A stretch of DNA of 64,000 nucleotides from a bacterium UBP4_UBA6127. Its GTDB lineage: Bacteria; UBP4; UBA4092. Made by a program: the position numbers and the translations under genes. Shown piece after piece: positions 1 to 60,336 of this stretch. How positions within the stretch are numbered: position 1 is the stretch's first letter; each line of letters opens with the position of its first letter. The stretch covers positions 34,486 to 98,485 of the forward strand of contig DIVR01000021.1 of the NCBI GenBank assembly GCA_002428325.1. Direction: 5' to 3'. The notes under the pieces are model-generated. The model was not told where the DNA came from. It searched no databases and saw only the letters and a program-made list of their open reading frames with translations.

Positions 1-1217
1 AGCTTCCCATAAAATTACATTCAGCCCATTTCTTCCAATCGGCAACGATATATCCTAATACCAAAAGCCCGGTACAATAACTCATCAGGTTCATAAACCC
101 AATAGCTTTACTGGGGGATTCAAAACTCCACCCCAGTAAAAGGATATACAATATCGCTCCCAGAAAACTAATTAAAGCATAAGTATTCCAGTTTTTTCGG
201 GCGCAGGAAACTACAGAAACCAACGTTATCCCAAACCCATATAAAAGCAATGTAATATCAGGAAGAGATTCTGCAGTGAAATGATACAAGGAAGTAACCC
301 CAGCCCCAATCGCCAAACCTCCAATTACCGCTAAATTTTGGACAATAGCCCAATTTTCATGATGACTGACCCATACAGCACCCAAGGTAATAACAAAACC
401 ATAAGAAAGATAACTCAGGTAAGGGTCAGAAGGCGCTTTCAGAAAGAAGGGGGTGAGATAAGAGCCTAAAAAACCAATAACCCCAATAGCTTCATGTTTA
501 TATCTCATTGCAAAGAATACCCCGCTGACTGTAGTTCCAGTTAAAAAGACCCAGGCCAAGGATCGGGGTATCAGATGGTAAAATCCATATGCGGCATAAA
601 AGCTTAAATATAAAATGGCCAGCCCGCCCCCAGTCAGGACATGGGCATAATTCAAATATTTCTTTTGCTGATTAAAATACTCTCCTAAACTTAGCAAAAC
701 CAACCCGGCAAGCCCCCCCAGGGCCACTCTGACGACTTCATTGATCCATCCCATTTCGAAAGCATATTTAAACAAGAGGGTTAACCCGATAAAGAGAGCA
801 GCAATTCCTATCTTACTCAACCAGTTTCCCCCGATTTCCGTTTCCAAGTCAGTCATTTTATCTGTAACCGCTTCAGAAGTATTATTTCCTTCTTGGGAAA
901 TGCTCTGAATCGATTCCGGCCTGTTGATAGAATCAATGGAAAAAGAGGCTGTTTCATGTAACCCGCCGGAAAAGGCCTCTGGAGCATCTGAGGTTGCATC
1001 AATAGCACGAACGGCAGGAAGAGGGGAAATAACAGGGACCTCTGTTTGAACTTCTATATTCTCTTTATCTTTGGGAATAGAAGATAAACCCTGTAATTCC
1101 TTTTCCAGTGTCCAGATTCTCTGGATTTGGATTTGCAAGATGCTTGTCAGTTCCTCAACCTGTTTTTTCAGGTTTTGGATTTCCTGCTTGATAATGTCGA
1201 ATTCTTTTGTACTCATC
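1..1217 (-). CDS. Partial membrane protein, DUF2339-like: N-terminal coiled-coil followed by many transmembrane helices. Truncated by the window edge.
   Basis: Reverse-strand reading from an ATG at 1217 (MSTKEFDIIKQEIQNLKKQVEEL...) stays open to position 1 with no stops. The coiled-coil N-terminus is followed by long hydrophobic stretches (LSKIGIAALFIGLTLLF..., GGLAILYLSFYAAYGF...). It is not in the ORF track because it runs off the edge. The translation was done by eye. Confidence 0.45.
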
Positions 1218-1421
1218 AGGGCCCATTATTACATAAGGTTATTGGGTTGACAAGAAAAGATAGCTTTTCATCTATCCCTTTTATTTATAATAAGTTGGCT
1301 AATATTAATAACAGCTCAGTTCATAAATGCTTTCATCTTGAATAAAAAAGCCTTTCGGGTTAAAGTCCCAATCTAAAGATTGGAGACTAACCAGAATGGC
1401 TTGGACTAAAATAACTGATTT

Positions 1422-2594
1422 TTATATTTCGATACAGTTGGACCCAGAACAAGCCGGAGTCACATAAATATCAGGGGACTTCCCTGACTGTTGGGAATAT
1501 TTTTTAGAAAGCTCAAAAACAAATCCCTCGACTGTCTCAGGCTGGACCAAGGCGACAGCACAACCACCAAAACCACCCCCGGTCATCCGGCACCCATAAC
1601 ATCCGGGAATATCGGCAGCAATTTTCACAATCATATCCAGTTCCTGGCAGGAGACCTGATAATCATCCCTCAGGCTGGCATGGGATTGATAAAGAAGCTC
1701 CCCGGCCCGGTTAAAATCACCGGCAGCCAAGGCTTCTGTAAAATCAACGACTCTCTTATTTTCTGTCAGGTTATGCCGAACCCGTTTTATGACATTTTCA
1801 GATAACTCAGACTGGTATGTCTCAAATATATCCATAGGAATATGGCGAAGAGAAGGAAAATCCTTACCTGCCAGGTTCTGTAGTTTCTTCAGTCCCTCTT
1901 CACATTCAGTCCGACGTTGGTTATATTCAGAATCAACTAAACCTCTTTTTTTCATTGAATTGATAATCACAATACTGGCTTTATCTGAATCAAAAGGAAT
2001 TAATTCATATTCCAGTGTATGGCAATCAATTTTCAAGGCTTTATCTTTTGACCCCAAAGCCGAAATAAACTGGTCCATGATCCCGCATTTAACTCCCACA
2101 AACCGGCTGTGTTCTGCAGCCTGAGAAAGAAGAGCAATAGACTTATTGGTTATCTCGGCTTTCGTTACCTCGGATAAAAGCATACCCACACATACTTCAT
2201 AGGCAGCCGAGGAGGAAAGCCCTGCCCCCAAAGGAACATCTCCTTCCAGACAGATGTTCATTCCCGGTAAGGGAATGCCTCTTTCCTGGAACTGAGCGGC
2301 CACAGCCAGAAAATAATTAACCCAGGTTTGGGTATCCAGCGGGTCCAATACCTGGTCTAATTGAATAACAACCTCAAAATCAAAATTGCCTGAATACAGA
2401 TGGATGGTATTATCGTTTCGGGGAGCAGCTGCCATTTTCATCTCCCGATTTATAGCTGCTGGAAGTACATACCCCCCATTATAATCAGTATGTTCTCCAA
2501 TCAAGTTTACCCGCCCTGGGGCCCTGGCTATCCATCTTGGACCACAGCCAAAAACATCCCTGAAAAGCTCACAAATATGTTCATTCCGAATCAT
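1422..2594 (-). CDS. galK: Galactokinase
   Basis: GHMP kinase. Galactokinase signature GRVNLIGEHTDYNGGYVLPAAI near the N-terminus; ATP motif PLGAGLSSSAA; C-terminal GGGFGGC. Confidence 0.9.
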   Translation of the reverse strand: MIRNEHICELFRDVFGCGPRWIARAPGRVNLIGEHTDYNGGYVLPAAINREMKMAAAPRNDNTIHLYSGNFDFEVVIQLDQVLDPLDTQTWVNYFLAVAAQFQERGIPLPGMNICLEGDVPLGAGLSSSAAYEVCVGMLLSEVTKAEITNKSIALLSQAAEHSRFVGVKCGIMDQFISALGSKDKALKIDCHTLEYELIPFDSDKASIVIINSMKKRGLVDSEYNQRRTECEEGLKKLQNLAGKDFPSLRHIPMDIFETYQSELSENVIKRVRHNLTENKRVVDFTEALAAGDFNRAGELLYQSHASLRDDYQVSCQELDMIVKIAADIPGCYGCRMTGGGFGGCAVALVQPETVEGFVFELSKKYSQQSGKSPDIYVTPACSGSNCIEI

Positions 2595-2606
2595 TGATAA
2601 CCCTTT

Positions 2607-3650
2607 CTATCCCTGTTTCCGATAATGGACTAACGGCATGGTTCGAATACGTTCCGCGGCCGATTCAGCTGTGATATCCCGTTGGGGTGTCGCCAACATT
2701 TCAAAACCAACCATAAATTTCTGGACAGTCGCCGATCGCAAGAGGGGGGGGTAAAAATGCAGATGCAGATGCCAGAAAGGATATTCCTTACCATCTACCG
2801 GCTGGTTATGGAAACCCATTGTATAAGGAAAAGAGACTTCGAATAGATTATCATACTGGGTTGTTAATACTTTCAAGGCATTGGCCAGTCCTTTATTTTC
2901 GATTTCAGTCATCTGTCCAAGATGAGCTAAATGTCTCTTGGGAAGCACCATAGTTTCGAAAGGCCATTTTGCCCAGAAGGGAACCAGCACCACCCATGCA
3001 TCATTTTCAAAGACCAGCCGGTCTTTGAGATGTAACTCTGCTTGCAAGTATTGGCATAAAAGGCACTGGCACGAGTGTTCTTCATAATGTTTCTTTTGAT
3101 GGATTAATTCCTTTTCAGGTTCCAGGGGAATAGTCTGGGTTGCCCAGATTTGTCCATGGGGATGAGGATTACTGCATCCCATGATAGCTCCTTTATTCTC
3201 AAAAATCTGAACATAAGAGATATCCTTGTTATCGCCCAGCTCCTGATATTGTTCCCTCCATAAACCAATGACACGATGGATATTATCCTCTTCCATTTCA
3301 GCCATTGTTAAGTCATGCCGGGGAGAATAACAGAGGACCCGGCATATCCCTTTTTCACTGTGGGCCACCAGGATACCCGCTTCATTAAAATCCTGGCTTC
3401 CAGACTCAGGCAATAAAGCAGCAAAATCATTTTGAAAAATAAAATTTTCAGTATAGGCAGGATTTTGTTTTCCCCCAGCCCGTTGATTGCCGGGACAAAG
3501 ATAACACTGAGGATCATAAACCGGCCTATTTTCCGGAGTACGGCTTTCAACTTTTCCCTGCCAGGGTCGTTGGAGCCGATGGGGGCTTACCAACACCCAT
3601 TCCCCAGTAAGGGGGTTATAACGCTTATGCGGGGTTTGAAAAAAAGTCAC
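2607..3650 (-). CDS. galT: Galactose-1-phosphate uridylyltransferase (HIT superfamily)
   Basis: Zinc/His motifs CYLCPGN and [22 protein letters not shown] (the HPH nucleophile region). About 347 aa. Immediately upstream of galK on the same strand, consistent with a galT-galK operon. Confidence 0.9.
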
Positions 3651-3735
3651 AACACTACCTCTTCCTTTTGATATAGATTATCTCAACCGTATATATTTTA
3701 CCGTATCAGGGAACACCATCAAGTAACGGGAGGGC

Positions 3736-4353
3736 TTATTTACAAAACATGGCCAGGAATGGAACCAGAAAAGGAACAATCAAGGTAATAATCAATCCCT
3801 GAAAAAAAGCTATAAAAGCATATTCGGCGCCACTGACCCGATTAATCAGAATCAAGGTTGAATCCATAGTGGTAGCCCCCCCCATGGCAATTCCTGGAAT
3901 CGTTAATTTCATCCGGTGCAACAGGGGAAAACACAACATGGTTAGCATTTCCCTGATCACATTGGATAGAAATGCCAGGGCTCCCATCTCGGGCCCCATC
4001 CATTTATCCATTAATACAGAGGTTAATGAATACCACCCTAATCCTCCCGTCAGGCACATCCCTTTCATGAAAGGAAATCGTAACAGTACCGTCGCAATGA
4101 CCCCTCCGGCAAAAGAACCCAGTACCACAGCAATCGGCAGTACCAACATCTGAAATCCGACTGTTTTTAGTCTTTTCCAGATATGGTTTATACCCAAATC
4201 TATCCCTACCAGAAATATCAATAATTCCAACAGCCACCAGGCAAGGGAATCTACCCGAGAAATCACTTCTACCGATACCAGTCCAGTGGCCCCCAGGAGA
4301 ACTCCGCCAACAATACAAATAAATATTCCCAGAGTTATCAAAATATCTCTCAT
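3736..4353 (-). CDS. LysO-family (DUF340) exporter, large subunit
   Basis: 205-aa polytopic membrane protein with a GGLGWYSLTSVLM motif. Overlaps the upstream 100-aa membrane ORF by 4 bp (translational coupling). This matches the split LysO pair arrangement. Confidence 0.55.
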   Translation of the reverse strand: MRDILITLGIFICIVGGVLLGATGLVSVEVISRVDSLAWWLLELLIFLVGIDLGINHIWKRLKTVGFQMLVLPIAVVLGSFAGGVIATVLLRFPFMKGMCLTGGLGWYSLTSVLMDKWMGPEMGALAFLSNVIREMLTMLCFPLLHRMKLTIPGIAMGGATTMDSTLILINRVSGAEYAFIAFFQGLIITLIVPFLVPFLAMFCK

Positions 4354-4652
4354 GGCTGCTTTTTCCCGGGGAGCTTTCTCATGACACCATATCCTCCCAA
4401 AGCGCTTCCAAGAGTGGTCAAGGCTGCAAAAGTGGCTCCTTTAAATCCAATAGATTTCAGGTTTCCCATCACCCGGGGGGAACTACCAATTTTCAATCCC
4501 AACACAAATATCAGGGTAAACAGACCCAAGACACCCAGCCGCCGTGACCATTTAAGCCAACCGGCTTCAGGATTTGATTTATGCCCAATCCACAAACCTG
4601 TACCCAGAATGGGAAAAAGAATCAAAATGTTGAAAATATCTTGCCAAGTCAT
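4350..4652 (-). CDS. LysO-family (DUF340) small membrane subunit
   Basis: 100 aa, about 3 TM segments, ends ...GFKGATFAALTTLGSALGGYG. ATGA overlap with the large subunit. Confidence 0.5.
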   Translation of the reverse strand: MTWQDIFNILILFPILGTGLWIGHKSNPEAGWLKWSRRLGVLGLFTLIFVLGLKIGSSPRVMGNLKSIGFKGATFAALTTLGSALGGYGVMRKLPGKKQP

Positions 4653-4887: not shown

Positions 4888-6366
4888 TTATTCGTATAAC
4901 ATCCACTCTTTAGATGTGCCAGTAACAAAGAATGAACCACCCATAACCGTCTGTTTAGTCTCCAAAACAAAGTTATTAGGACCATCCGGAGGTGAATAAA
5001 CTCTGAGCAACTCGCTGATACTATCAGTAATATAAACATTGCCCACTGCATCCAGATCAATAGCTCTCGGAGTAGCACTAGCCCATGGTACCAGGGTCAA
5101 TTGGGTACTCAGATTTCCCAAAGGAAGAGGCAACGGACAAGATCCCAGTCCAGGGCCACCTTCTGTTAAGGCAAAAAGCATTCTTCCATGGTTTTCATCC
5201 AGAGCAAATCCACCAATCATTCCTCTGATGGGATCAGGAGTTGTATTACTATTTCCTGTTGAAAGGGAATCCCACAAAAGAGTTGACCCTGTAGAATCAA
5301 AAACCACTAAGCAGGGATAATCAGTTCCCGCAGAACGATAATTAGCTACATACCAATTCCCGGCAGAGTCGCGACGGACAGTTCCCGGGGTAGAATTAAC
5401 TAAGATACCTAAAGTAGAATCCCCCGGATAGGTTGTAAAGGTACTGTCGTTAATAGCTACTGTTGGAGCGGTAGTCCATGGAAAGGGTCCATTCCCCACA
5501 GGATATTTCCAAATGCTGCATTGCTGAATATCTCCAGCGGCAGGTAAATCTTCATCCTGGGTATAAAGGACCGTCTGGGTACCTGTTCCTTCTACATATA
5601 CCCCGGAGACGCTTCCATGCAGACCAGCGACCAATCCGGATGACAACTGTCCAGTGGTATCAAAGACCATCGTGAAATTACCGGACAAATCAGGTTCCGC
5701 CAAAAAAACATTTCCATGAGAATCTGACCAGTCAGCAATCCAGAGTCTACCGTCCGGACCCACAAAAAGGTGATAGGGACTGGATGTACCACTTGTCCCC
5801 CAATTAATACCTCCAGAACGGGCCACTGTTCCAATCGAAAGAGGATCAGACCCATCAGGATATAAGGCATATATGCCATCACCCATTAAACGGCCTGAGG
5901 CTGTCGGAGTCGTTCGGGTGTTGGTAATATAAACCATACCAAAATAGGGATCACCGCTATTTTTATTAACAGCACATCCTCGAGGACTCTCAAACTGGAA
6001 GATACTTTCAGCATCATTGGAAATAATATTCCATGTAGTATGCCCCACATTATCCACAGCAATAATCCTGAAACCATAATTGGCTGTCGTAGTGGCTGAG
6101 CCTCCCTCTGTTTTACCATCCCAGAATACTTGGTTATATCCTTTGAAAGGTGTACTTTCCAAGTTGCGAACAACAGTGGTATCTGGTAAAGGGCCATATA
6201 TTTGAACAGTTACAGCACTACAGGTTTCGTTTAATCGATAAGTAATTTTGGGAGCCACTCCGGTTGTGTTAACCGAAACAGAAAAAGGCATGACATTCGC
6301 AAAAACTGCACTGGTGAAAATTAACAATAAAAATACGCTCAAACAACATACAAAAATCTTTTTCAT
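4888..6366 (-). CDS. Secreted hypothetical protein, probable beta-propeller fold
   Basis: Signal peptide MKKIFVCCLSVFLLLIFTSAVFA. Gly/Ser/Thr/Asp-rich with repeated motifs (...GRLWIADWSDSHGNVF..., ...GNWYVANYRSAG...). No catalytic motif recognised. Confidence 0.55.
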   Translation of the reverse strand: MKKIFVCCLSVFLLLIFTSAVFANVMPFSVSVNTTGVAPKITYRLNETCSAVTVQIYGPLPDTTVVRNLESTPFKGYNQVFWDGKTEGGSATTTANYGFRIIAVDNVGHTTWNIISNDAESIFQFESPRGCAVNKNSGDPYFGMVYITNTRTTPTASGRLMGDGIYALYPDGSDPLSIGTVARSGGINWGTSGTSSPYHLFVGPDGRLWIADWSDSHGNVFLAEPDLSGNFTMVFDTTGQLSSGLVAGLHGSVSGVYVEGTGTQTVLYTQDEDLPAAGDIQQCSIWKYPVGNGPFPWTTAPTVAINDSTFTTYPGDSTLGILVNSTPGTVRRDSAGNWYVANYRSAGTDYPCLVVFDSTGSTLLWDSLSTGNSNTTPDPIRGMIGGFALDENHGRMLFALTEGGPGLGSCPLPLPLGNLSTQLTLVPWASATPRAIDLDAVGNVYITDSISELLRVYSPPDGPNNFVLETKQTVMGGSFFVTGTSKEWMLYE

Positions 6367-6740
6367 TCCTTTTTACCTCCATTCATTTGTAAATGATAAA
6401 TTAAATAACACAATCCTCACTGGGTGATTTATGATGCTTTTTTCCGAAACCTCCTTTCATAAAACCCACACCCAGTAATCTATCTCATTTTATACAGCCA
6501 CCCCTGTTTTTTGTCAATATATTTTTATCGTACCCAGCACCCAGTAAATAGTCATCCAGTATATTCATTTCAAGGGTTTCATTTTACTAATCAACAAGTT
6601 GGAAGATCTTCAGGCTCTTATGGAAGAAAAAGATTTTTCTTATATTCAATTGCTAAAGAATCATATTTCGACAGTTATCAAATTTAGTCAATGAATAATA
6701 CCAGATAGTCATCATTTCCATGCTGTCAGCACCCATTATA

Positions 6741-6774
6741 ATTATGTTCAAATAGAATGCGGGGCCTGCTTAAG
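6741..6774 (-). terminator. Putative terminator hairpin after the 6813..8624 gene
   Basis: GC-rich near-palindrome GCGGGGCCTGCTTAAGCAAGCCCCGC lies 40 nt past the stop and is followed on the minus strand by ATTCTATTT. The U-tract is weak. Confidence 0.4.
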
Positions 6775-6812
6775 CAAGCCCCGCCATAAGTATCGTAATG
6801 CCAAAATAAATA

Positions 6813-8624
6813 CTATTCTTTGATCAACGGTGCATCAGTGGGAGTCACTGAAACCGAAGCTGACGCAGACCATCCATTGACCGACTCAGCAGTAACCTGA
6901 GCAGTACCAAGAGTAGTCCCCAAATTAATTGTCGCAGTATCACCTGAAGCCACACCAATAGCAGCTATCTCTGTACTGCTGGAGACCCAGGTTAGATGGG
7001 CTCCATTAGGAGCATATCCCGCCACACCCTTCAAAGCAGAACTGCCTGAACCGGCTGTTGCATAAGCGGTGTTGGTAACATTCAGATATTTACCACCCAC
7101 AGCGGTTAATTCGGCATTGGAATTAGGCTGACCGGTAATGCTTTTCGGTAGAACCTGCAAAGAAATATCATCAAAGCTGACCGACTGGAAGGAAGGATCC
7201 GCAAAAATATTATTGGTCAGAGTCAAAGTCCCTGCCGTTGTGGAACGATTAATCCCAGCATCTGTCGCTGTTGCCAGAAAATAGGATCCTGTCGTAACCA
7301 AAGCACAATTTGTGATAGAAAGGTTAACCGCCGGAGTTGAGAAATCAATCAGGTTGTTAACTGTAGTGCTGGAACCGGCAATCCCTGAACCAGCAATAAC
7401 TGAATCAGAAATTGTAACCGATCCTGTTCCTGTCCCTACATTCGCAACTGTCAACCGAATAGGGCCATTCACACTGGTTTCCAATGTAGAAGTCCCATTT
7501 CCATAAAATGTACAATTAGTGAAATTCCAAGTTCTCTTCATTTCATCGGCCGGATAAAGTCCATTTCTCACATTACCGGCAAAAATACAATGGTCAAAAG
7601 TAATTCCAGGGAGTGAATCAGCATCATCGGCAAACATCCCAATCACACCTTCCTGGTTATTATTCACTACATAAACATAATGAAGTTCATAGGCTCGAGC
7701 AGAATCACCGTTGTCATCCGAGAACAATGCTAATGCGCCATTACCTGTGCTTAGATAACCATTTCCCAGAATCCAGATGGGGGTGGTGGCTGTTCCAAAC
7801 ATCTTAACGACTGTAGAGTCCGTGGCAATTTGAATACCCACTCGATCCATATAAGAAAACACACAGGGACCATACATAACCAATTCCTGGCCATTGTCAG
7901 GAACCCAAATCATACCATCAGGCGAATTAAGTCCACCATGCTGATTGGTGGAAATAAACTTAGTGATTGTGCAATAAGAATAATTACCTGCCAGGTTCAT
8001 ATGGTCATCTCTGAAGGTTGTGCCGGAACCAATAGCCACATAAGTCATTCCATCTGTAGATAAAGGTGCATTAGAACCATCATTCCCGGTAATCAGTATA
8101 TCATCTAAAATTAACCCAATGGTTGCCGTTGGATCTAAACCAGTGGCATTTGTATTGGACCGAATCCCTCTTAAGGCAGCATTCCCCATTTGAGGAATAA
8201 TGCTTAAGTTTTTCAAGACCACATCAATGTTAGCTCCACCTGTAGGAATAAAGATAGCAACACCAGAATCATTGACAGAACTGGCTAATCCGGCAGTTTT
8301 TCCAGCCACAATCACTGGACGGTAATTCAACCCTTGAATAGTGACACTTGTCTGAATCGGCACTCCAGTTGCTTCTATATAGGGTCCACCACCAGTAATA
8401 TTAATAATATCCGGAGTAGAAGCATCTGCTGTTACCGCTGAATAAGCTCCACTGATGGTAGTATAATTACTACCTGATTGAGGTTGGGTATCATTAACTG
8501 TAACCGTCTGAGCACAAGCAAATGAAACCATAACCATGGAAGCTATTGACAAAAATAATTCCCTTTTCATTGTGAATTTCTCCTTTATATTTTTATTACA
8601 ATAATTCATAACCTCATTACTCAT
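6813..8624 (-). CDS. Secreted protein with parallel beta-helix-like repeats and a C-terminal Ig-like (Big_2-type) domain
   Basis: The signal peptide begins at the internal Met (MKRELFLSIASMVMVSFACAQT), so the likely true start is about 8570. The sequence is Gly/Asn/Thr-rich with repetitive beta-strand periodicity. The C-terminal about 80 aa (...VTAESVNGWSASASVSVTP...) resembles a bacterial Ig-like domain. Confidence 0.5.
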   Translation of the reverse strand: MSNEVMNYCNKNIKEKFTMKRELFLSIASMVMVSFACAQTVTVNDTQPQSGSNYTTISGAYSAVTADASTPDIINITGGGPYIEATGVPIQTSVTIQGLNYRPVIVAGKTAGLASSVNDSGVAIFIPTGGANIDVVLKNLSIIPQMGNAALRGIRSNTNATGLDPTATIGLILDDILITGNDGSNAPLSTDGMTYVAIGSGTTFRDDHMNLAGNYSYCTITKFISTNQHGGLNSPDGMIWVPDNGQELVMYGPCVFSYMDRVGIQIATDSTVVKMFGTATTPIWILGNGYLSTGNGALALFSDDNGDSARAYELHYVYVVNNNQEGVIGMFADDADSLPGITFDHCIFAGNVRNGLYPADEMKRTWNFTNCTFYGNGTSTLETSVNGPIRLTVANVGTGTGSVTISDSVIAGSGIAGSSTTVNNLIDFSTPAVNLSITNCALVTTGSYFLATATDAGINRSTTAGTLTLTNNIFADPSFQSVSFDDISLQVLPKSITGQPNSNAELTAVGGKYLNVTNTAYATAGSGSSALKGVAGYAPNGAHLTWVSSSTEIAAIGVASGDTATINLGTTLGTAQVTAESVNGWSASASVSVTPTDAPLIKE

Positions 8625-32663: not shown

Positions 32664-33935
32664 TCATTCTTTGTTCAAAATAGTTAATTGCTTAGCCGGG
32701 ATATCATATTTACAGGTATCTATTTTCCCCATTTTATTACACCTAAAGTAAATCATCTTTGAATCAGCAGAAAATCCCATAAACGTGGCATATTCCTTTT
32801 TCACTGAATCATGGGAAGCAAGGTAAACAGCATCGGCTTTTCTTGTTTGAAGATGAAGCAGATAGATATTATTACCAATATTGCCTGCCAATAATTTTCC
32901 ATTATTCGATATCTTCCAATTTTCCATTGTCAGCTCATATTCACCCGCAAAAGGGTCAACAAAACCCCAGCGAATCACCTTTTTTTGCTTCAGGCTCCCC
33001 GGAATCCACTTTTCCAGAGAATAATTTCTCTTGTTATTCTTACCCGTTTCAGCTGACAGAATATAACCAATGCCCTTAGACAGAAAAAAAGTTTTCTCGG
33101 AAGATTCCAACTCTGCTCCTGTTGAAGATAACCAATTTCTGCGAAGGGTATCTTCTGTTGTTTCACCAGTGAGGAGGTTGACTCGGAATAAAGATTTTAA
33201 AATGTAAAATGATTCCTTCCCGTTGAATAAATAGGGATTATAAGGCTGCATAGGATCCAGGGCATAACTCACGGGAGGGTTGGCATTGATTATTTCTTCC
33301 GGGATGGCATCAATGGATACTGTTGTAAAATAAACATTATTAGGTTCTAATGGGTCCAGACAGTAATGAAATATATAATCCTTTATATCTTTTGTCAGTA
33401 TCTTATTTTCCCCCGTCTTGGTATCAAGGAGATACAGGGTATCCCGGTGAGTTGAATTGAAATGATTATAGATTCTGATAAATTCGGGATCAGATGATAT
33501 TAATGAATGCCATTTATCAGGCAGTTTTCCATCCTTGGGGAGCATTGAACGAAGGATAATATGCCGAGAATCAAAACACCAGTCAGCCTCAAAGGGTGCT
33601 TCCGATTCCCACACTGTTTGTAACTCGTTTGCCTGTATATCAAAGACTTTAAGAACGAATTTCTTATATTGTCTTTCCCCATAAATCCCCGGGACCCCGG
33701 TTGTTCCATCGGTATATACGATAAATATTTTTTGATGATTGGGTGATAATTCTTCATCCCCAAACCATATGGGGAGCACCCATCCCTTATCGGGCTTTAT
33801 TACATGAACAGCTCCTTTATCATCAATGATATTAACTTCATCTTTTTCATTGATGACGAATGTATTCCCAATGGTTAACTGGTATAACAGTAGGATACAG
33901 ATAAATTGAATTTGAATTTTAAACAATTTCCCCAT
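32664..33935 (-). CDS. Secreted hypothetical protein
   Basis: Hydrophobic N-terminal signal (MGKLFKIQIQFICILLLYQLTIGNTFV). 423 aa. No recognisable catalytic motif. Beta-rich, so possibly a propeller. Confidence 0.45.
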   Translation of the reverse strand: MGKLFKIQIQFICILLLYQLTIGNTFVINEKDEVNIIDDKGAVHVIKPDKGWVLPIWFGDEELSPNHQKIFIVYTDGTTGVPGIYGERQYKKFVLKVFDIQANELQTVWESEAPFEADWCFDSRHIILRSMLPKDGKLPDKWHSLISSDPEFIRIYNHFNSTHRDTLYLLDTKTGENKILTKDIKDYIFHYCLDPLEPNNVYFTTVSIDAIPEEIINANPPVSYALDPMQPYNPYLFNGKESFYILKSLFRVNLLTGETTEDTLRRNWLSSTGAELESSEKTFFLSKGIGYILSAETGKNNKRNYSLEKWIPGSLKQKKVIRWGFVDPFAGEYELTMENWKISNNGKLLAGNIGNNIYLLHLQTRKADAVYLASHDSVKKEYATFMGFSADSKMIYFRCNKMGKIDTCKYDIPAKQLTILNKE

Positions 33936-34072
33936 ATTGCTTCCCTCCCTGTCTTTTTACTGCACTTGGCCATCACCGAGGAATACAATGGGTAATTCGA
34001 ATAATTCATAAAAATATCAGGCTCATCAAAATGTCTTTTTTACTTCTATTTACTCCATTCTTTTAGGGCTCT

Positions 34073-34603
34073 TTATTCAATCTTCTTAACCTGGATATTA
34101 TAAATTGCGGTAAACCCCACCATCATCCAACCCAAAAAAACAAAGAACATTGTCATCGAAGAATAGTAAAGGATATCCTTCAGATGGAAATAATCTATTT
34201 TTTCCTGGAGAGATAAATACATATTAGCGAAGGATAGGATAGGCTTCACCATAAAACCTATTCCTAAAAAGATAAAATACATGATGATAAATGATACGCC
34301 ATAATTTAGTCGAGAAGGAACCGGTATGTCTTTAACCGCTGGATATACTGATAAAAGTTCCTTTGCTTCCCGGTACATCCTTTTTGATGTTGCCGCTGTC
34401 ACAGTTGTTCCGATAGCTAAAGCTATCAATGATGGCAATAACTCTATGAAAGTACTGTATAGGTATAATATTAGCCCGTACTCTAATAAGAATAAAATGA
34501 GGATGAAGAATTTTAAGATATAGCCATCAAGAATATCTTTCCTGTCTATAATCTGATGCTTATAGGCCATCGGTTCAAATAATATTTGAGCAAGCTTTTT
34601 CAT
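34073..34603 (-). CDS. Hypothetical membrane protein
   Basis: 176 aa with 4-5 hydrophobic helices. No motif recognised. Confidence 0.4.
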   Translation of the reverse strand: MKKLAQILFEPMAYKHQIIDRKDILDGYILKFFILILFLLEYGLILYLYSTFIELLPSLIALAIGTTVTAATSKRMYREAKELLSVYPAVKDIPVPSRLNYGVSFIIMYFIFLGIGFMVKPILSFANMYLSLQEKIDYFHLKDILYYSSMTMFFVFLGWMMVGFTAIYNIQVKKIE

Positions 34604-34804
34604 TTTATTTTCCCTCAGTTTCCCTATCCCCTTTGTTACCTTCCCTTATCAAGATAAAATAACACTTTATATCTGTCAATCTTTTTCAACCTTGGCAAGC
34701 CCCTGGGCCGGAAAAACCTTCCCTGGAAAACCAATTTCTCTATAAAGAACTCATTTCTGAGGAGTTATCTTCATTTTTCGTCCCAAGAGCCATCGGAGTG
34801 AGAC

Positions 34805-34872
34805 CCAGGCTGTAGCCATCAGGTTGGGTCCCGCTTCGTTGTAAAAGGAGACTGAAATAGGATAAAGGGAGT
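34805..34872. repeat. Conserved intergenic element, copy A (GAGACCCAGGCTG-N8-CAGGyTGGGTCCC followed by a GA-rich tail)
   Basis: About 65 nt, highly similar to 45191..45258. Contains an imperfect inverted repeat CCCAGGCTG / CAGGTTGGG. Confidence 0.5.
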
Positions 34873-34981
34873 GGAAACGGAGGGGACTGGCAGAAAATCC
34901 CCCATATCCTGGGCAAAAAGAGTTCACAGAAAAGAGTGATTCTGAGAAAATGGGATAAACAAATCAGGATGGAACCCTTGG

Positions 34982-35365
34982 ATGGAACGCAAAGAATTCG
35001 ACAAACTGGTTGAAGAAGCCCTGGCTCGGCTCCCCCAGGATTTCAGGGAAAAGATGATAAATGTGGCGGTCTATGTGGAAGATTATCCCACCGGAGACAT
35101 GCTGAGGAAATATGGGCGGCAGGGTCTCCTGGGGGTCTTCATCGGAGTTCCGATAACCGTCCAAAACTGGGAGGGCGGATATCATCCCCACCGAATCATC
35201 CTGTACCAGAAAAATATTGAATCTTTCAGCCGGAATGATGAGGAAATCAGGGAGCAAATCCTGACCACTGTCATCCATGAGGTCGGCCATTATTTCGGGA
35301 TTGGCGAAAAACGGATTCGAGAACTTCAGGGACTTCCCCCTGAACCGGGAGGAGGCTCGGATTAG
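34982..35365 (+). CDS. Metallopeptidase family protein (COG3824/DUF1025, MMP-like minimal Zn protease)
   Basis: 127 aa. FDKLVEEALARLPQDFREKMINVAVYVEDYP and the HExxH site TVIHEVGHYFG match this small family closely. Confidence 0.75.
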   Translation: MERKEFDKLVEEALARLPQDFREKMINVAVYVEDYPTGDMLRKYGRQGLLGVFIGVPITVQNWEGGYHPHRIILYQKNIESFSRNDEEIREQILTTVIHEVGHYFGIGEKRIRELQGLPPEPGGGSD

Positions 35366-55616: not shown

Positions 55617-56252
55617 ATGAAGATTAACGAAATATACACTTCCATCCAGGGTGAATCCACCTGGGCAGGGTTGCCTTGTGTCTTTATCAGGACATCAGGC
55701 TGTAATCTGCGCTGTAATTATTGTGATACCACCTTTGCTTATAATGAGGGGAAAGAGATGAGCCTTCCCCAAATATTGAGGAAAGTGGAATCATATGGTC
55801 TGCCTTTGGTGGAATTAACAGGAGGTGAACCTCTCCTCCAGCCTGAATCTCCCCAATTAGTCAGGGAACTCTGTGAGAAAAACTATACCGTCCTGGTGGA
55901 AACCTCCGGTAGTATCGATATCTCTTCCCTGGACCCTCGGTGTATCAGAATCATGGACCTCAAATGCCCTTCCTCAGGGGAAATGGAATCCATGCATTGG
56001 GATAATATCAGGCATCTTCGGCCTCGGGATGAGATTAAATTTGTCATTGGGGATGAAAGGGATTTTTACTGGTCTTTAAATGTCATTAGGCAACATCAAC
56101 TGGACCAGAAATGTTCTATCCTCTTTGCCTGTGTCTTTGGCACCCTCTCCCCTAAACTCCTGGCAGAATGGATGCTTCAGGAAAAGGTCAATGCCAGGCT
56201 CCAGCTCCAGCTTCATAAATATATCTGGGACCCAAAACAAAGAAAAGTTTAA
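55617..56252 (+). CDS. queE: 7-carboxy-7-deazaguanine synthase QueE (radical SAM)
   Basis: MKINEIYTSIQGES...VFIRTSGCNLRCNYCDTTF (CxxxCxxC) and LTGGEPLLQ. 211 aa. Confidence 0.8.
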   Translation: MKINEIYTSIQGESTWAGLPCVFIRTSGCNLRCNYCDTTFAYNEGKEMSLPQILRKVESYGLPLVELTGGEPLLQPESPQLVRELCEKNYTVLVETSGSIDISSLDPRCIRIMDLKCPSSGEMESMHWDNIRHLRPRDEIKFVIGDERDFYWSLNVIRQHQLDQKCSILFACVFGTLSPKLLAEWMLQEKVNARLQLQLHKYIWDPKQRKV

Positions 56253-56476
56253 GGGGAATCGCTGCATTCTTTTTTCTCATTGGTTCATGGGGCTGAAATC
56301 AATCCACCTGATCACCTCAAACCCTCGATTACCACTGTTATCTTAGACTGCCTGCAAGACTTTTTTTGAGAGGGCTGTCTGTGAAAAAGTTTCTCCCTTC
56401 TTCAATCAGAAATAAATAAAGCGATTGGTTTTACCCAATCACCCTTCTATATAGATAACAGTTTTACAAGTTATGC

Positions 56477-57139
56477 TTAGGACCATTTATACCAATAAGG
56501 CTTTATTCTCTTGAGTCTGTATTTTGTATAATGGGCTTTCTGAGGATTGTCATTTGATATATAAAGATGACCTCCTACTGAAAAAGGTCCATATCCACCA
56601 GTTAAAAACCTGATAATTAATGTACCATCCTCATTTTTATCGACAATAGCGCCATTAGCTGGTAATTCTAAAGGAGTTTCATAAAACGAATCAGCTTGAG
56701 GCTTTATTCTATGATTCTTAATATCGTCCGTCATCCTCTCAAATTCAGGAAAATGTTGATTAAATTGCCGTTCTTGTAATTGAGAATAAATACTGCCTCC
56801 CAACAACCCAATTATTGGTATAAACAATAGAGTAATAGCTAAAGGAAGCATATAACTCCAGATAATTCTATGTTTTTCATAATATCTTATTATTATTTCA
56901 ATACTGCCTAGGATAAAAAAGATCAAAATACTTCCAACATAAAGGCCAAAATAACTTATCCAAATCATTGAAATGGACATAAGAGGATTGTTGATTGGAA
57001 TAAATCCTAAAATAACTTCAATAAGGAATAATATTATTCCAATACTTAGCATAACAGTTGATAATACATTTATAGTTTTCATAATTCTATTCAGAATAAG
57101 CATACCAATGAGGTTTGATTTTACGAATCTTCCGATCAT
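56477..57139 (-). CDS. Membrane protein, candidate immunity protein for the adjacent Rhs toxin fragment
   Basis: 220 aa. 4 TM N-terminal half plus a soluble C-terminal domain ending ...GGHLYISNDNPQKAHYTKYRLKRIKPYWYKWS. AT-rich codon usage, unlike surrounding genes. Confidence 0.45.
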   Translation of the reverse strand: MIGRFVKSNLIGMLILNRIMKTINVLSTVMLSIGIILFLIEVILGFIPINNPLMSISMIWISYFGLYVGSILIFFILGSIEIIIRYYEKHRIIWSYMLPLAITLLFIPIIGLLGGSIYSQLQERQFNQHFPEFERMTDDIKNHRIKPQADSFYETPLELPANGAIVDKNEDGTLIIRFLTGGYGPFSVGGHLYISNDNPQKAHYTKYRLKRIKPYWYKWS

Positions 57140-57305
57140 CTATTAAGCCTATGCTCTTATCATCTGATAAATACAAATATCCACCTCTTAACTCTGGTAT
57201 TCTCCCAAAAGTGCAAAACTGAATAACCTGAGTAACCTGATTTCCATTACCTTTAATATTTGATAAAAATATCCTGTCAGCAGGAAACCCATATTGTATT
57301 AACAT
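57087..57305 (-). CDS. Short paralog/fragment of the immunity-like C-terminal domain
   Basis: 72 aa. ...GFPADRIFLSNIKGNGNQVTQVIQF...GGYLYLSDD...RKIKPHWYAYSE aligns with the C-terminal domain of the 56477..57139 protein. Confidence 0.4.
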   Translation of the reverse strand: MLIQYGFPADRIFLSNIKGNGNQVTQVIQFCTFGRIPELRGGYLYLSDDKSIGLIDDRKIRKIKPHWYAYSE

Positions 57306-57493
57306 ATCTATTCCTTAAACAATCGGTTTAACATTCTATTTGCTTGAGAATTAGTGGGTCCCGCTATTATTCCTTTATATGCATAAGGTAATCTTGTCCA
57401 CTGTTTTCTTATTAAACCCATTTTAGGACCCCAATTTTTATAACCAGAAGGATACCGAAAAGGATCACTCAAATAATGTATCTTGGGAGTAAC

Positions 57494-58252
57494 CTAATTA
57501 CCATTCCAAATAGACCTTGGACCACCCCATCGAACAGGTAACCAGTGAGAAAATTCCATTCCACTTTCCTTTACACCAGCAGCTTTTATACCAGCACCAT
57601 ATCCTAATAAGATATTCCATGCGACTCCAGACAATTCACCTGCTTTATATAATGAGGAACAATGATCAACAAAATCATCAGCTCCATTTGCTTTTCTTAT
57701 CACACGAGTCAAACCAAATGTAATATTATCAGCAAAACCTGCAGAGTAATCACCAGCATCTCTTAATATATCTTCCCAGTAATCAAGTCCATCAGGATCA
57801 TAACCATTGACCGGATCATTGAAACAGAACTGATACAGATTCGGCCCATCCAATCCCAAAGGTTCAGGGGAAAGCCATCTCCCCAATTCCGGGTCATACC
57901 ACCGGGCGCCGAAATAATAAAGGTCGATATACCCATCTTCCTGGCCTCTTTCATGGAGATGGAGGTCATTATCCGCATACCCGGTGGAAGATATTATATT
58001 CCCGAAAGCTTCCTGATTGTAAGTGGCAATAATACTACCCGTGGAATCAGAGATAAACAGCACATTTCCAATGGGGTCGGTATGGTACCAATAATCAATG
58101 CCGCCTTTACGGATACTGATGACTCGGTTCAGGGAAGAAGGCAGGCTATGGTAATAGGTATTGGAGACAGTGGCTCCCTGATAGATTTCTCGTTCTTGGA
58201 TGACATTATTCCCATCAAAGTAATATTGGTTCTGGGTCAGCTTTGCTTCAAC
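57494..58252 (-). pseudogene. 5'-truncated Rhs/YD-repeat protein C-terminal fragment (orphan Rhs-CT toxin cassette)
   Basis: The open frame runs from a stop at 58253-58255 with no ATG. The only canonical start is a GTG at 58063, in the middle of a YD repeat. YD repeats: ...GIDYWYHTDPIGNVLFISDSTGSIIATYNQEAFGN... RHS core: DLYYFGARWYDPELGRWLSPEPLGLDGPNLYQFCFNDPVNGYDPDGL. The variable C-terminal toxin domain is about 100 aa. Confidence 0.6.
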
Positions 58253-58405
58253 CTAACACATAAACTATTCAAAGAATCTTAGAACCATTTAACAGATACT
58301 TATTTATGGTTAAGCCTAAATATAGGGTAATGTCTGTGTCTTTACTTTTGGGCTTATCGGATAAAGACAGGTGTCAAAACAGAGATTTTGGTTATCGATA
58401 TAGTA

Positions 58406-58429
58406 TCTTTTTGACAGCTGTCAAAAAGA
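58406..58429. repeat. Palindromic motif TCTTTTTGACAGCTGTCAAAAAGA (copy 2 of 2, 24-bp perfect palindrome)
   Basis: Intergenic, between the aspS 3' end and the Rhs fragment. Same TGACAGCTGTCA core as copy 1. Confidence 0.6.
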
Positions 58430-58548
58430 CTTCTTATTGATTTTTATGGAGTTAGCAATATGGGATAGACACAGGGGAAAGGTTATAAATAAAAAACAGG
58501 GGAACCCTTGGTTAGAAGGTTTCCCCTGTTAGGAAATAACAGATAAAT

Positions 58549-60336
58549 CTATTCAACCACTTTTACATGGAGTTCTCTAAGCAGTCTTGCATCGGCTTCA
58601 CTGGGTGCAGAGGACATGGGGCATTGTGCCTTCTGGTTTTTTGGGAAGGCAATGACATCCCGGATACTCTTATTACCCGTCAGAAGCATAATAAACCTGT
58701 CCAACCCGATAGCCATCCCGCCATGGGGAGGTGCCCCAAACCGGAGAGCTTCCAGGAAGAATCCAAATTTATTGGCCGCTTCTTCTTTGGAGATGCCAAA
58801 TATCTGGAACATCTTGGATTGCAATTCCGCGTCATGGATACGGATGGAACCACCGCCCAATTCTGTCCCATTCAGGACCAGGTCATAGGCATGCGCCCTG
58901 GCCCGGGTGGGGTCTGTATCCAGAAGAGTCACATCCTCATCCAAAGGAGAGGTGAAAGGATGATGCCGGGCTTTAAACATCTTGTCTTCTTCCCTGTATT
59001 CCAAAAGCGGCATATCCGTGATCCAGAGGTAATTATAGACTCCAGGAGTCCGAAGTTTCAATTCATCGCCAAAATGGAGCCGTAATCTGCCAAGGACATC
59101 GGCTGCAATATCTTCCTTATCGGCAATATAGACAATCAAATCCCCCGGGTTAGCATTAAAAGCGGTTACCAGGGTTTTGATTTCTTCTTCTTTAAAGAAT
59201 TTAGCGATGGGGGTCTCTATACCTGTTTCGGTTACTTTCATCCAGGCCATTCCCTTGGCACCCATCTGCTTGGCATAATCAGTCAGCTTGTCCAACTGGT
59301 TCCGAGTATAGGTGGCACAACCGGAAGCACAGATACCTCTGACGACCCCTTTTGATTGGACTGTTTTGGCAAATACACCAAATTCCACATCTGCCACCAG
59401 TTGGCTGACATCCAGGATTTCCATACCAAACCGGGTATCCGGTTTATCAGAACCATATTTCAACATCGCTTCGGCATAAGGCATCCTGGGAAAAGGCTGG
59501 GGAATATCCATATTATGGATTTCCTTCATCACCCGGCAGACAGCCGGCTCCACCAAGGTAAAGATATCTTCCTGGTCAATGAAAGACAACTCAAAATCCA
59601 ATTGGGTAAATTCCGGCTGCCGGTCAGCCCGAAGGTCTTCATCCCGGAAACAACGGGCTACCTGGAAATATTTCTCCACCCCGGAGATCATCAGGGTTTG
59701 TTTGAGTTGTTGCGGAGATTGCGGCAAAGCATAAAACATCCCCTGATTGACCCGGCTGGGAACCACATATTCCCTGGCTCCGGTTTCAGGGGTACTCTTA
59801 TAGAGTACCGGGGTCTCGATTTCCAGGAATCCTTGCTCATCGAAATAATCCCTCAGGACTTTGATGACTTTATGCCGTAAGGCAAGATTTTTATACATCT
59901 CGGGCCGCCGAAGGTCTAAATACCGATATTTCATCCTTAAATCTTCAGAAGTATCGATATTATCTTCAATCAGAAAAGGAGGGGTCTCTGATTTATTCAA
60001 AATCTGGAGGCCTTCGCCCAACACTTCAATTTCTCCGGTAGCCAGATTGGAATTGATGGTACCTTCAGGCCGTTCCCGGACCAAACCCTTCACCGAAACC
60101 ACAAACTCTGACCGAAGTTTCTGAGCCTGTTTCTGGATTTCAGTATCCTGGGTCGGGTCAAATACAATCTGGACCAACCCCGTTCTGTCTCTCAGGTCCA
60201 CAAAGGTTAAACCACCGTGGTCACGAGTCCGCTGGATCCATCCGGTTAAATGGACTTCTTTTCCTACATGGGATTTTCTTAAATCGTTGCATGCATAGGT
60301 ACGCTTCCAAAACGCCATGAGATTAATCCTTTCCAA
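58549..60336 (-). CDS. aspS: Aspartate--tRNA ligase
   Basis: Class II aaRS motifs FRDEDLRADRQPEFTQLD, ...GGGSIR... and PPHGGMAIGLDR, with an N-terminal OB-fold anticodon-binding domain. The true start may be the MAFWKRTY Met, 6 codons in. Confidence 0.95.
   Translation of the reverse strand: MERINLMAFWKRTYACNDLRKSHVGKEVHLTGWIQRTRDHGGLTFVDLRDRTGLVQIVFDPTQDTEIQKQAQKLRSEFVVSVKGLVRERPEGTINSNLATGEIEVLGEGLQILNKSETPPFLIEDNIDTSEDLRMKYRYLDLRRPEMYKNLALRHKVIKVLRDYFDEQGFLEIETPVLYKSTPETGAREYVVPSRVNQGMFYALPQSPQQLKQTLMISGVEKYFQVARCFRDEDLRADRQPEFTQLDFELSFIDQEDIFTLVEPAVCRVMKEIHNMDIPQPFPRMPYAEAMLKYGSDKPDTRFGMEILDVSQLVADVEFGVFAKTVQSKGVVRGICASGCATYTRNQLDKLTDYAKQMGAKGMAWMKVTETGIETPIAKFFKEEEIKTLVTAFNANPGDLIVYIADKEDIAADVLGRLRLHFGDELKLRTPGVYNYLWITDMPLLEYREEDKMFKARHHPFTSPLDEDVTLLDTDPTRARAHAYDLVLNGTELGGGSIRIHDAELQSKMFQIFGISKEEAANKFGFFLEALRFGAPPHGGMAIGLDRFIMLLTGNKSIRDVIAFPKNQKAQCPMSSAPSEADARLLRELHVKVVE

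Follow-up and report, generated by a model that had tools for sequence, protein, structure and literature searches.

Probable remnant of an Rhs orphan-cassette array between aspS and queE in a UBP4 bacterium

The DNA analysed here (the window, 64,000 nucleotides of contig DIVR01000021.1 from the bacterium UBP4_UBA6127) carries on its minus strand, at 56477-58252, the 3' part of an Rhs toxin gene followed by two open reading frames (ORFs) listed with 72 and 220 codons. Comparison with relatives suggests that this region is very probably the eroded remnant of an array of Rhs orphan cassettes between the genes aspS and queE. In the sequence, the toxin cassette is broken in three ways: it has no start, its C-terminal toxin domain (the tip) contains a nonsense codon, and its cognate immunity gene has been lost. 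The toxin would not be made, and the only role left to the cassette would be that of a substrate for recombination with a full-length rhs gene.

The Rhs frame opens at 58252, is closed by a TAG at 57494-57496 and contains the core sequence quoted in an earlier reading of this DNA, which used no database searches (the sequence-only reading). The NCBIfam model TIGR03696 (Rhs_assc_core) matched residues 82-156 (57785-58009) with an E value of 1.7e-17 and 63.7 bits, against a cut-off of 32.5. The core ends in NDPVNGYDPDGL, which corresponds to the PxxxxDPxGL autoproteolysis motif (DPxGL cleavage motif). Only 156 core residues are present, and both the long YD-repeat shell (>1000 aa) and the N-terminal secretion/plug region are missing. 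Relatives with full-length rhs genes share homology with the fragment from about 58246 onwards (..KLTQNQYYFDG), stop codons are present upstream of 58252, and about 240 nt of non-coding DNA lie between a hairpin on the aspS side and the opening of the frame. The first ATG, GTG or TTG is the GTG at 58063, as the sequence-only reading had stated; its further statement that the frame has no ATG holds except for a single late in-frame ATG, the M of GMEFSHW. A tblastn search found no further Rhs-like sequence in the window, which agrees with the earlier observation that nothing Rhs-like lies upstream, and aspS stands where a main rhs gene would precede the cassette.

The translated core is nearly identical to those of relatives that carry other tips. 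Compared with a 1439-aa Rhs protein on contig L007 (364-4683, at the queE side of the locus), it has 3.5 non-synonymous and 22.5 synonymous differences over about 146 codons, and it is also nearly identical to the cores of P0010 and P0002. The L007 protein ends in a DUF2380 tip (E 9.7e-10), and the tips of these relatives (DUF2380; LLTIPFYGW...) are not that of the window. The sequence-only reading had proposed to look for a full-length Rhs gene that combines this core with another tip; such a gene is present in L007 and absent from the window. With its 5' truncation, a host-like core homologous to a main rhs, and a different, AT-rich tip, the fragment has the make-up of an orphan module, which supports this part of the earlier interpretation.

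The tip is longer than the roughly 100 aa assigned to it by the sequence-only reading, which had described only the part before the nonsense codon. The closest homolog, P0001 (94% identical, on the syntenic contig L001), reads ..WNGNYVTPKIHYLSDPFRY.. across the TAG of the window, i.e., ...RSIWNGN-Y-VTPKIHYLSDPFRYPSGYKNWGPK...RLFRE, and the codon at 57494-57496 is TAT in L001. P0209 likewise has a Tyr at this position and then continues. The stretch 57308-57493 aligns residue for residue with P0001 and with the family members P0004-P0009. The same TAG occurs in all three assemblies that contain the region, and TAG is the stop codon of 10 of the 36 long ORFs in the window. Because P0001 reads through, the three assemblies agree and TAG is a normal stop here, the comparison shows a predicted tip of about 158 aa (57308-57784) in which one base change, TAT to TAG, has created a premature stop. 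The window therefore holds no intact toxin frame, with TAG in place of a conserved Tyr codon. The lesion falls between N96 and V98, and the product would be without H103, D107 and everything that follows. All invariant positions of the family are retained in the window tip except Y97 (the stop) and I82 (Leu). Relative to L001, the tip has 5 non-synonymous and 8 synonymous changes in total, mostly synonymous before and after the stop, and the dN/dS ratio is 0.20 before it and 0.13 after it. Since there is no excess of non-synonymous change on either side, the nonsense lesion looks recent.

The gene that normally follows this tip is not one of the two ORFs found behind it in the window. In L001, the toxin is followed 3 nt on by a gene for a 299-aa protein of a family that we call family A. 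This protein is homologous to the products of genes directly downstream of distant toxin homologs in L006 (265 aa, E 1e-40) and L005 (145 aa, E 1e-14). Among 82 toxin loci, the first downstream ORF belonged to family A in 55, to an unrelated family B (about 120-166 aa) in 21 and to neither in six; the membrane-protein family of the window was found in this position at none of them. Family A also follows all nine tip-bearing open frames of at least 1000 aa. A six-frame profile search for the membrane family in 85 toxin loci gave no match, and its positive controls scored E values of 3e-42 and 5e-23. The pairing follows the tip subtype: 27 of 31 YRFM loci have family A, and 14 of 18 YPSG loci have family B. 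Both families are without hydrophobic segments. Family A proteins come in two sizes, about 145-155 aa and about 265-306 aa, the larger with a weakly SUKH-like C-terminal half. Scans of both families against Pfam, NCBIfam and PADLOC returned only noise, the best match being that of SUKH_6 to the C-terminal half of the 299-aa protein (E 0.07). This distribution suggests that families A and B are the usual soluble immunity partners of the tip family. Of the family A gene, 13 nt are left in the window, and the orphan module thus has no cognate immunity gene directly behind it. At two metagenome toxin loci A and B stand in tandem, and a third, membrane-type downstream protein (YKYQFTSTVEDLLEAEEAER...) was observed at three others from metagenomes.

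The loss of the family A gene can be followed at the 72-aa ORF. The window is collinear with L001 as far as ATGTTAATACAAT, the 13 nt with which the family A gene begins, and then continues ATGGGTTTCCTGCTGAC..., for which the L007 counterpart is ...CCCAATGGGTTTCCTGCTGAC, at about codon 156 of a gene for a 223-aa membrane protein. This gene is present at full length in L007 (7346-8017), where the order is the 1439-aa Rhs gene, genes for 228, 218 and 201 aa, a core stub, the genes for 223 and 208 aa, and queE. The first 13 nt of the 72-aa ORF (57293-57305, MLIQ) and its ribosome-binding site AAGGAA derive from the family A gene, and the remainder consists of the last 68 or so codons of the 223-aa gene, fused in frame. 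The junction shows a microhomology of 3-4 nt (CAAT/AAT). A microhomology-mediated deletion would have joined the fifth codon of the family A gene to about codon 156 of the 223-aa gene. This would have cost the window about 4.4 kb, as measured on the composite of L001 and L007: the family A gene, a trio of Cys-rich paralogs (228, 218 and about 204 aa), the core stub and two thirds of the 223-aa gene, counted from its 5' end. The 72-aa ORF would then be a meaningless in-frame deletion remnant. The sequence-only reading was right to see in it a fragment of a paralog of the larger protein, and wrong in taking it for a duplicated fragment.

A second rearrangement is suggested by the core. Window positions 63261-57783 align with L001 1-5477 at 96.8% identity, positions 58008-57293 align with L001 8050-8765 at 94.8%, and the 225-nt overlap of the two alignments lies in the core. 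In L001 the order is aspS, orphan 1 (193 aa, with the tip EWYDIREAQNYW...), two genes, orphan 2 (P0001), the 299-aa gene and the genes for 228, 218 and 204 aa. The overlap in the core implies that, in the window fragment, the 5' core comes from orphan 1 and the tip from orphan 2. Homologous recombination between two direct core repeats would have removed another orphan tip together with two unrelated genes. The event may also have run in the reverse direction, as an insertion in L001. The L001 segment that is not in the window (5581-7706) holds two minus-strand genes, for 352 and 339 aa, between the two rhs orphans. Neither gave a significant match in Pfam or PADLOC, and they may be cargo inserted into the array.

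The tip itself belongs to a large family. A first search recovered P0001, P0004-P0006, P0008 and P0009, a profile search recovered 193 protein clusters, and a metagenome scan recovered at least 215 relatives, 80 of which had their loci fetched (L019-L098). The named sources are Chitinimonas, Marinobacterium, Rhodoferax, Massilia, Acidobacteriota and a Sandaracinus metagenome-assembled genome; the family spans Proteobacteria, Acidobacteriota and Myxococcota besides the source anaerobe. The 120 protein matches listed were all of 313 aa or less, as in an orphan-only family. That idea was rejected: besides many short orphans, there are nine metagenome loci in which the tip forms the C-terminus of an open frame 1051-1905 aa long, which indicates a genuine Rhs C-terminal toxin domain. 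No consistent Pfam match was obtained among the family members, single ones giving weak Gly-zipper Pfam matches, and no NCBIfam model matched the tip. PDB sequence searches with the tip profiles matched only residual Rhs core columns (teneurin, TcC and Rhs entries). Foldseek returned non-significant matches, including an HNH nickase and Cas9. The toxin domain thus has no named or solved relative in these four resources, and its description in the sequence-only reading as uncharacterised stands.

An AlphaFold2 model of an intact homolog had a mean predicted local distance difference test score (pLDDT) of 87.6. The N-terminal half of the tip is helical and is followed by the first strand of a beta hairpin (EFSHW). 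Two invariant features were found, summarised by the signature EFSHWIP...GGPRSxWNGNYV...DPFRY for the second of them. A glycine-zipper-like pattern (G49, G53, G61, G65, A68, A69) lies on a long helix, 44-68, whose peak 19-aa hydropathy is 1.08, below the transmembrane threshold. A polar block (E77-F-S-H80-W-I-P-x-R85...G-P-R90-S...N94-G-N96-Y-V...H103...D107-P-x-R110-Y) maps to strand 77-80, strand 95-98 and helix 100-106. In this strand-strand-helix unit, H80 is at the end of the first strand, N94 and N96 are in the second, and H103 and D107 are in the helix, with spacings of 16 and 7. As a motif-level hypothesis, the block would have the geometry and spacing of an H-N-H beta-beta-alpha-metal finger. 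The predicted H...N...H strand-strand-helix would then resemble that of His-Me finger toxins such as the colicin E9 DNase and AHH-, LHH- and DUF2380-type tips. Alignment of the tip profile with colicin E9 DNase by hhalign, using an approximate E9 sequence, gave a probability of 0.1.

These features suggest two candidate mechanisms, a nuclease of the His-Me-finger (HNH-like) type and a membrane-depolarising toxin of the glycine-zipper type, about equally likely at roughly one third each. The Pseudomonas aeruginosa Rhs effector Tse5-CT, which PMC12744356 cites, is a membrane-depolarising toxin of the glycine-zipper type. Staphylococcus aureus EsxX is another such toxin; soluble ExiAB neutralises it in the cytoplasm, and the polytopic pair ExiCD, which is also retained as orphan immunity, neutralises it from outside (PMC12744356). 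Because EsxX is a membrane toxin with soluble cytoplasmic immunity, soluble partners are no reason to dismiss a membrane toxin here. Like EsxX and Tse5-CT, the tip family has a long helix with an invariant GxxxG-type pattern and, at the C-terminus, a helix rich in Gly and Ala; like EsxX, it is apparently neutralised by soluble proteins. It differs from them in that its sequence resembles none of the solved chains, those of Rhs proteins among them, and in its strongly conserved polar motif, which is unusual for pore formers. Tentatively, and with slightly less than even confidence, we take the tip to represent a widespread, undescribed Rhs toxin family without a solved fold relative, either a new nuclease with a membrane-entry module or a new pore former with chaperone-type immunity in the cytoplasm.

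The second ORF behind the tip encodes a membrane protein of a different history. The 220-aa ORF most likely starts at M20 (57082), where its homologs begin, giving 201 aa. The AlphaFold2 model of the 201-aa protein (pLDDT 93.4) shows four helices, three of them long and hydrophobic, and a beta domain of five strands; this makes three transmembrane helices, not the four proposed in the sequence-only reading. From the positively charged loop RYYEKHR after helix 2, the beta domain probably faces outward, into the periplasm. The paralogy noted earlier is borne out: over 48 aa, the 72-aa ORF and the C-terminal end of the 220-aa ORF are 37.5% identical, with E values of 1.7e-4 (search within the window) and 1.8e-7 (blastp). 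A word-based search found one ortholog only, 93% identical, and an exhaustive HMMER search found 27 representatives among 1.84 billion proteins. All are about 200 aa long, with the same architecture and the C-terminal motif GGY-Y-S-D...KIKP-WY. Neither the 201-aa nor the 72-aa protein significantly matched Pfam, NCBIfam, PADLOC or known immunity families (SUKH/SMI1-KNR4, Imm). Between window and L007, the 201-aa gene differs by 14 non-synonymous and 14 synonymous changes, a dN/dS ratio of 0.25.

In L007 and three further assemblies (L007-L010), the 223-aa paralog and a 208-aa ortholog stand in tandem just before queE; in L007 the full-length rhs precedes this pair. Directly upstream of the pair is a frameshifted core stub (..YTQEAFGNII..LHLHERGQVDGYIDL*YFVARWY; tblastn E 4e-11), and this is the position of the immunity genes of an orphan cassette whose tip has been lost. 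Among the four of the 27 representatives whose neighbourhoods were looked up, P0174 begins 8 nt after an Rhs orphan, P0016, whose tip is unrelated to that of the window and has Gly-rich hydrophobic stretches. A search for a remnant of a P0016-type tip upstream of the membrane genes found none. On balance, the 201-aa protein is rather more likely than not to be an orphan immunity protein for a different toxin, probably one acting at the membrane or in the periplasm, and not the partner of the adjoining toxin. Probably still functional, the protein would sit in the inner membrane and guard the cell against toxins of relatives like the one beside P0174. The truncated 223-aa gene and its 201-aa paralog would belong to a different, older cassette, the core of which is found only as a frameshifted stub in relatives. 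In L012 (5461-7277), an 84-aa fragment, the 200-aa P0175 and the 138-aa P0173 form a tandem set flanked by genes for a lipid A acyltransferase and a sodium-solute symporter. No toxin gene is close by, and the set looks like an orphan immunity islet.

Several points weigh against this reading of the region. The ancestral arrangement is a composite of two contigs, L001 and L007, from two other assemblies, and for this reason the 4.4-kb size of the deletion and the direction of the core-core event are inferences. The dN/dS ratios derive from few substitutions in both genes. That the toxin is not made is concluded from the nucleotide sequence only, and any other rhs loci of the source genome lie beyond the 64 kb that the survey covered. 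The proposed immunity role draws on one clear toxin adjacency and on the position behind decayed core stubs, and two family members, P0175 (L012) and P0176 (L013), have no toxin near them and are surrounded by lipid A, nucleoside and sugar-kinase genes. The sequence-only reading had itself regarded homologs in unrelated non-toxin contexts as evidence against immunity; these two are of that kind, and P0174, behind its Rhs orphan, is not. The 201-aa and 223-aa proteins might therefore be ordinary lineage-specific membrane proteins that merely neighbour rhs debris, with no link to immunity, and their lack of a Pfam, NCBIfam or PADLOC family match would fit this. We consider it doubtful, with a minor though real share of the probability, because P0174 follows a toxin so closely, because the pair stands directly behind a core stub in four assemblies, and because tandem paralogs and fragments (L012), a rare and patchy distribution and a very low GC content (30.4%) are typical of orphan immunity islands. 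The membrane pair could also be a second, membrane-side immunity to the same toxin, as ExiCD is for EsxX (PMC12744356). The glycine-zipper-like pattern of the tip, its usually soluble immunity and the presence of the paralogous pair a few genes downstream in the reconstructed ancestor all suit such a role. It is nevertheless highly unlikely: the membrane family is absent from the 85 other loci of the toxin family, including the nine with long frames; three genes of the DUF2380-tipped Rhs and a separate core stub lie between toxin and pair; and the one clear toxin partner of the family has an unrelated tip.

The sequence-only reading had proposed a simpler arrangement, in which a tip of about 100 aa is followed by its own immunity gene (the 220-aa ORF) and by a duplicated fragment of it (the 72-aa ORF). 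Both ORFs are indeed directly downstream and paralogous, and the whole patch is AT-rich. We regard this arrangement as very improbable, since the toxin domain runs past the TAG, the nearly identical toxin of L001 precedes a family A gene whose start is kept in the window before the switch to another gene, the first downstream ORF is of family A or B in 76 of 82 toxin loci, and the 72-aa ORF derives from the 223-aa gene by deletion. The claim that the genes downstream of the toxin are its immunity genes is hence not upheld. Nor is the cassette likely to be still active, with the TAG an error or read through and translation beginning at an internal start, as in a toxin-antitoxin-like module. An orphan Rhs of Salmonella is reported to be expressed as such a module (PMC7043789), and the tip shows no excess of non-synonymous change relative to L001. 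Set against this are the identical TAG in three independent assemblies, the use of TAG by other long ORFs, the missing ATG start and cognate immunity gene, the terminator upstream, and a truncation between the conserved N96 and H103/D107, which together make activity extremely improbable. Our preferred reading remains the eroded orphan-cassette array.

Jackson et al. reportedly described "C-terminal displacement" in Escherichia coli Rhs in 2009. Orphan toxin/immunity modules downstream of a main rhs gene are known from Salmonella Typhimurium LT2 (rhs-orphan; PMC3967940), and orphan immunity genes from the Serratia Rhs NADase immunity (PMC10539506) and the Rhs arrays of bee-gut type VI secretion systems (PMC5727410). 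The phenomenon is thus well known in kind. As in the LT2 module, the truncated rhs of the window keeps part of the core as a recombination handle, followed after the DPxGL motif by a divergent low-GC tip. Arrays of several pieces occur in the relatives (L001, L002 and L018), recombination between core repeats is in evidence, and a full-length rhs with the same core is present at the locus in L007. The known modules, in contrast, are intact toxin-immunity pairs that recombination can reactivate, whereas that of the window is broken and has no main rhs gene within 64 kb. With orphan immunity islands the region shares an intact immunity-like gene (201 aa) that is under purifying selection and whose toxin is gone, and, in relatives, tandem paralogs or fragments, patchy distribution and low GC. 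It differs in that the putative immunity family matches no described one and has two members in housekeeping neighbourhoods.

The locus is therefore a routine example of the erosion of an Rhs array, by a point mutation, one homologous deletion and one microhomology deletion, and leaves the current understanding of polymorphic toxin systems unchanged. It provides a worked case of cassette decay in which the order of events was reconstructed against two relatives, and it illustrates that the gene adjoining a toxin tip need not be the immunity gene of that tip. Two further leads come from it: a toxin family that is abundant yet unannotated and is paired with either of two immunity families, and a rare family of membrane-anchored proteins that are candidates for immunity.

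The features of the region and its neighbours are listed in the following table.

Features of the region between queE and aspS, with positions in the window
Feature	Position	Strand	Remark
aspS	58549-60336	minus	Neighbour upstream of the Rhs frame
Terminator-like hairpin with U-run	58489-58530	minus	Downstream of aspS; folding dG -20.6 kcal/mol, z -3.5
Rhs core fragment, 5'-truncated	57785-58252	minus	TIGR03696 match; ends in the DPxGL motif
Toxin tip, first 96 codons	57497-57784	minus	Family alignments and AlphaFold2 model of intact homolog
Nonsense codon TAG	57494-57496	minus	Replaces Tyr of the conserved NGN-Y-V motif
Remaining toxin tip, 61 codons and natural stop (57308-57310)	57308-57493	minus	Same frame
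54-aa TTG ORF	57308-57472	minus	Mechanical listing of the second part of the tip
Chimeric 72-aa ORF	57087-57305	minus	Junction comparison of window, L001 and L007
Intact 201-aa membrane protein	56477-57082	minus	Alternative starts 57103 (208 aa) and 57139 (220 aa)
Terminator-like hairpin after the membrane-protein gene	56418-56445	minus	Consensus scan; downstream edge of island
queE	55617-56252	plus	Convergent neighbour; synteny with L007 and L008

Identical sequence (100% over 2.4-2.7 kb) was found in three assemblies of different data sets, namely an ENA contig of 220 kb, the JGI TOLCLC contig of 136 kb and a Logan contig, and because of this identity the region is not an assembly artefact. 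The sequence-only reading had allowed that a full-length rhs gene might continue across an assembly error here. Together with aspS and a terminator upstream and the synteny of L001, the agreement of the three assemblies speaks against this. None of 200 shuffled sequences folded as well as the hairpin behind aspS, which a simple consensus scan had overlooked because of an internal loop in its stem. This hairpin would shield the cassette from read-through out of aspS and would mark the upstream edge of the island. A promoter scan of 56200-58650 gave 5 promoter-like matches, with 9.5 expected by chance, and none in the spacer between aspS and the core (58253-58548). The low GC content pointed out in the sequence-only reading was confirmed: it is 33.1% for 56477-57799 against 43.6% for the whole window, which places this patch in the lowest 0.24% among windows of the same size and makes it the most AT-rich stretch of its size. 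The Rhs core fragment has a GC content of 45.7% and the membrane-protein gene one of 30.4%. No tRNA gene, a possible integration site, is present in the 64-kb window.

Further rhs pieces are found in relatives, as contigs L002 and L018 of the lineage hold additional orphan fragments. The 1439-aa Rhs of L007 has a signal-peptide-like hydrophobic N-terminus and no PAAR or VgrG-related Pfam domain, which suggests Sec-dependent rather than type VI export. Three tandem Cys-rich paralogs (about 200-228 aa, with CxxC pairs) are present at L007 4691-6732 and L001 10082-12124. The 228-aa paralog, the one checked, gave no Pfam match, and the trio is probably the immunity set of the DUF2380-tipped Rhs. 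L002, which is from the same assembly as L007 (GCA_002382585.1), has at 1-4400 a second array of decayed rhs pieces; two of these have weakly DUF6765-like tips, each followed by one of two paralogous small membrane proteins of about 126-129 aa. Elsewhere in the window, a second low-GC stretch (33000-35000, 37-38%) encodes hypothetical proteins of 423 and 176 aa on the minus strand; the 176-aa protein looks membrane-bound, and as far as examined no relation of it to the rhs island was seen. Contigs of the organism, an uncultured anaerobe, recur in methanogenic hydrocarbon-degrading and chlorinated-solvent-degrading enrichment cultures, from which its habitat was inferred.

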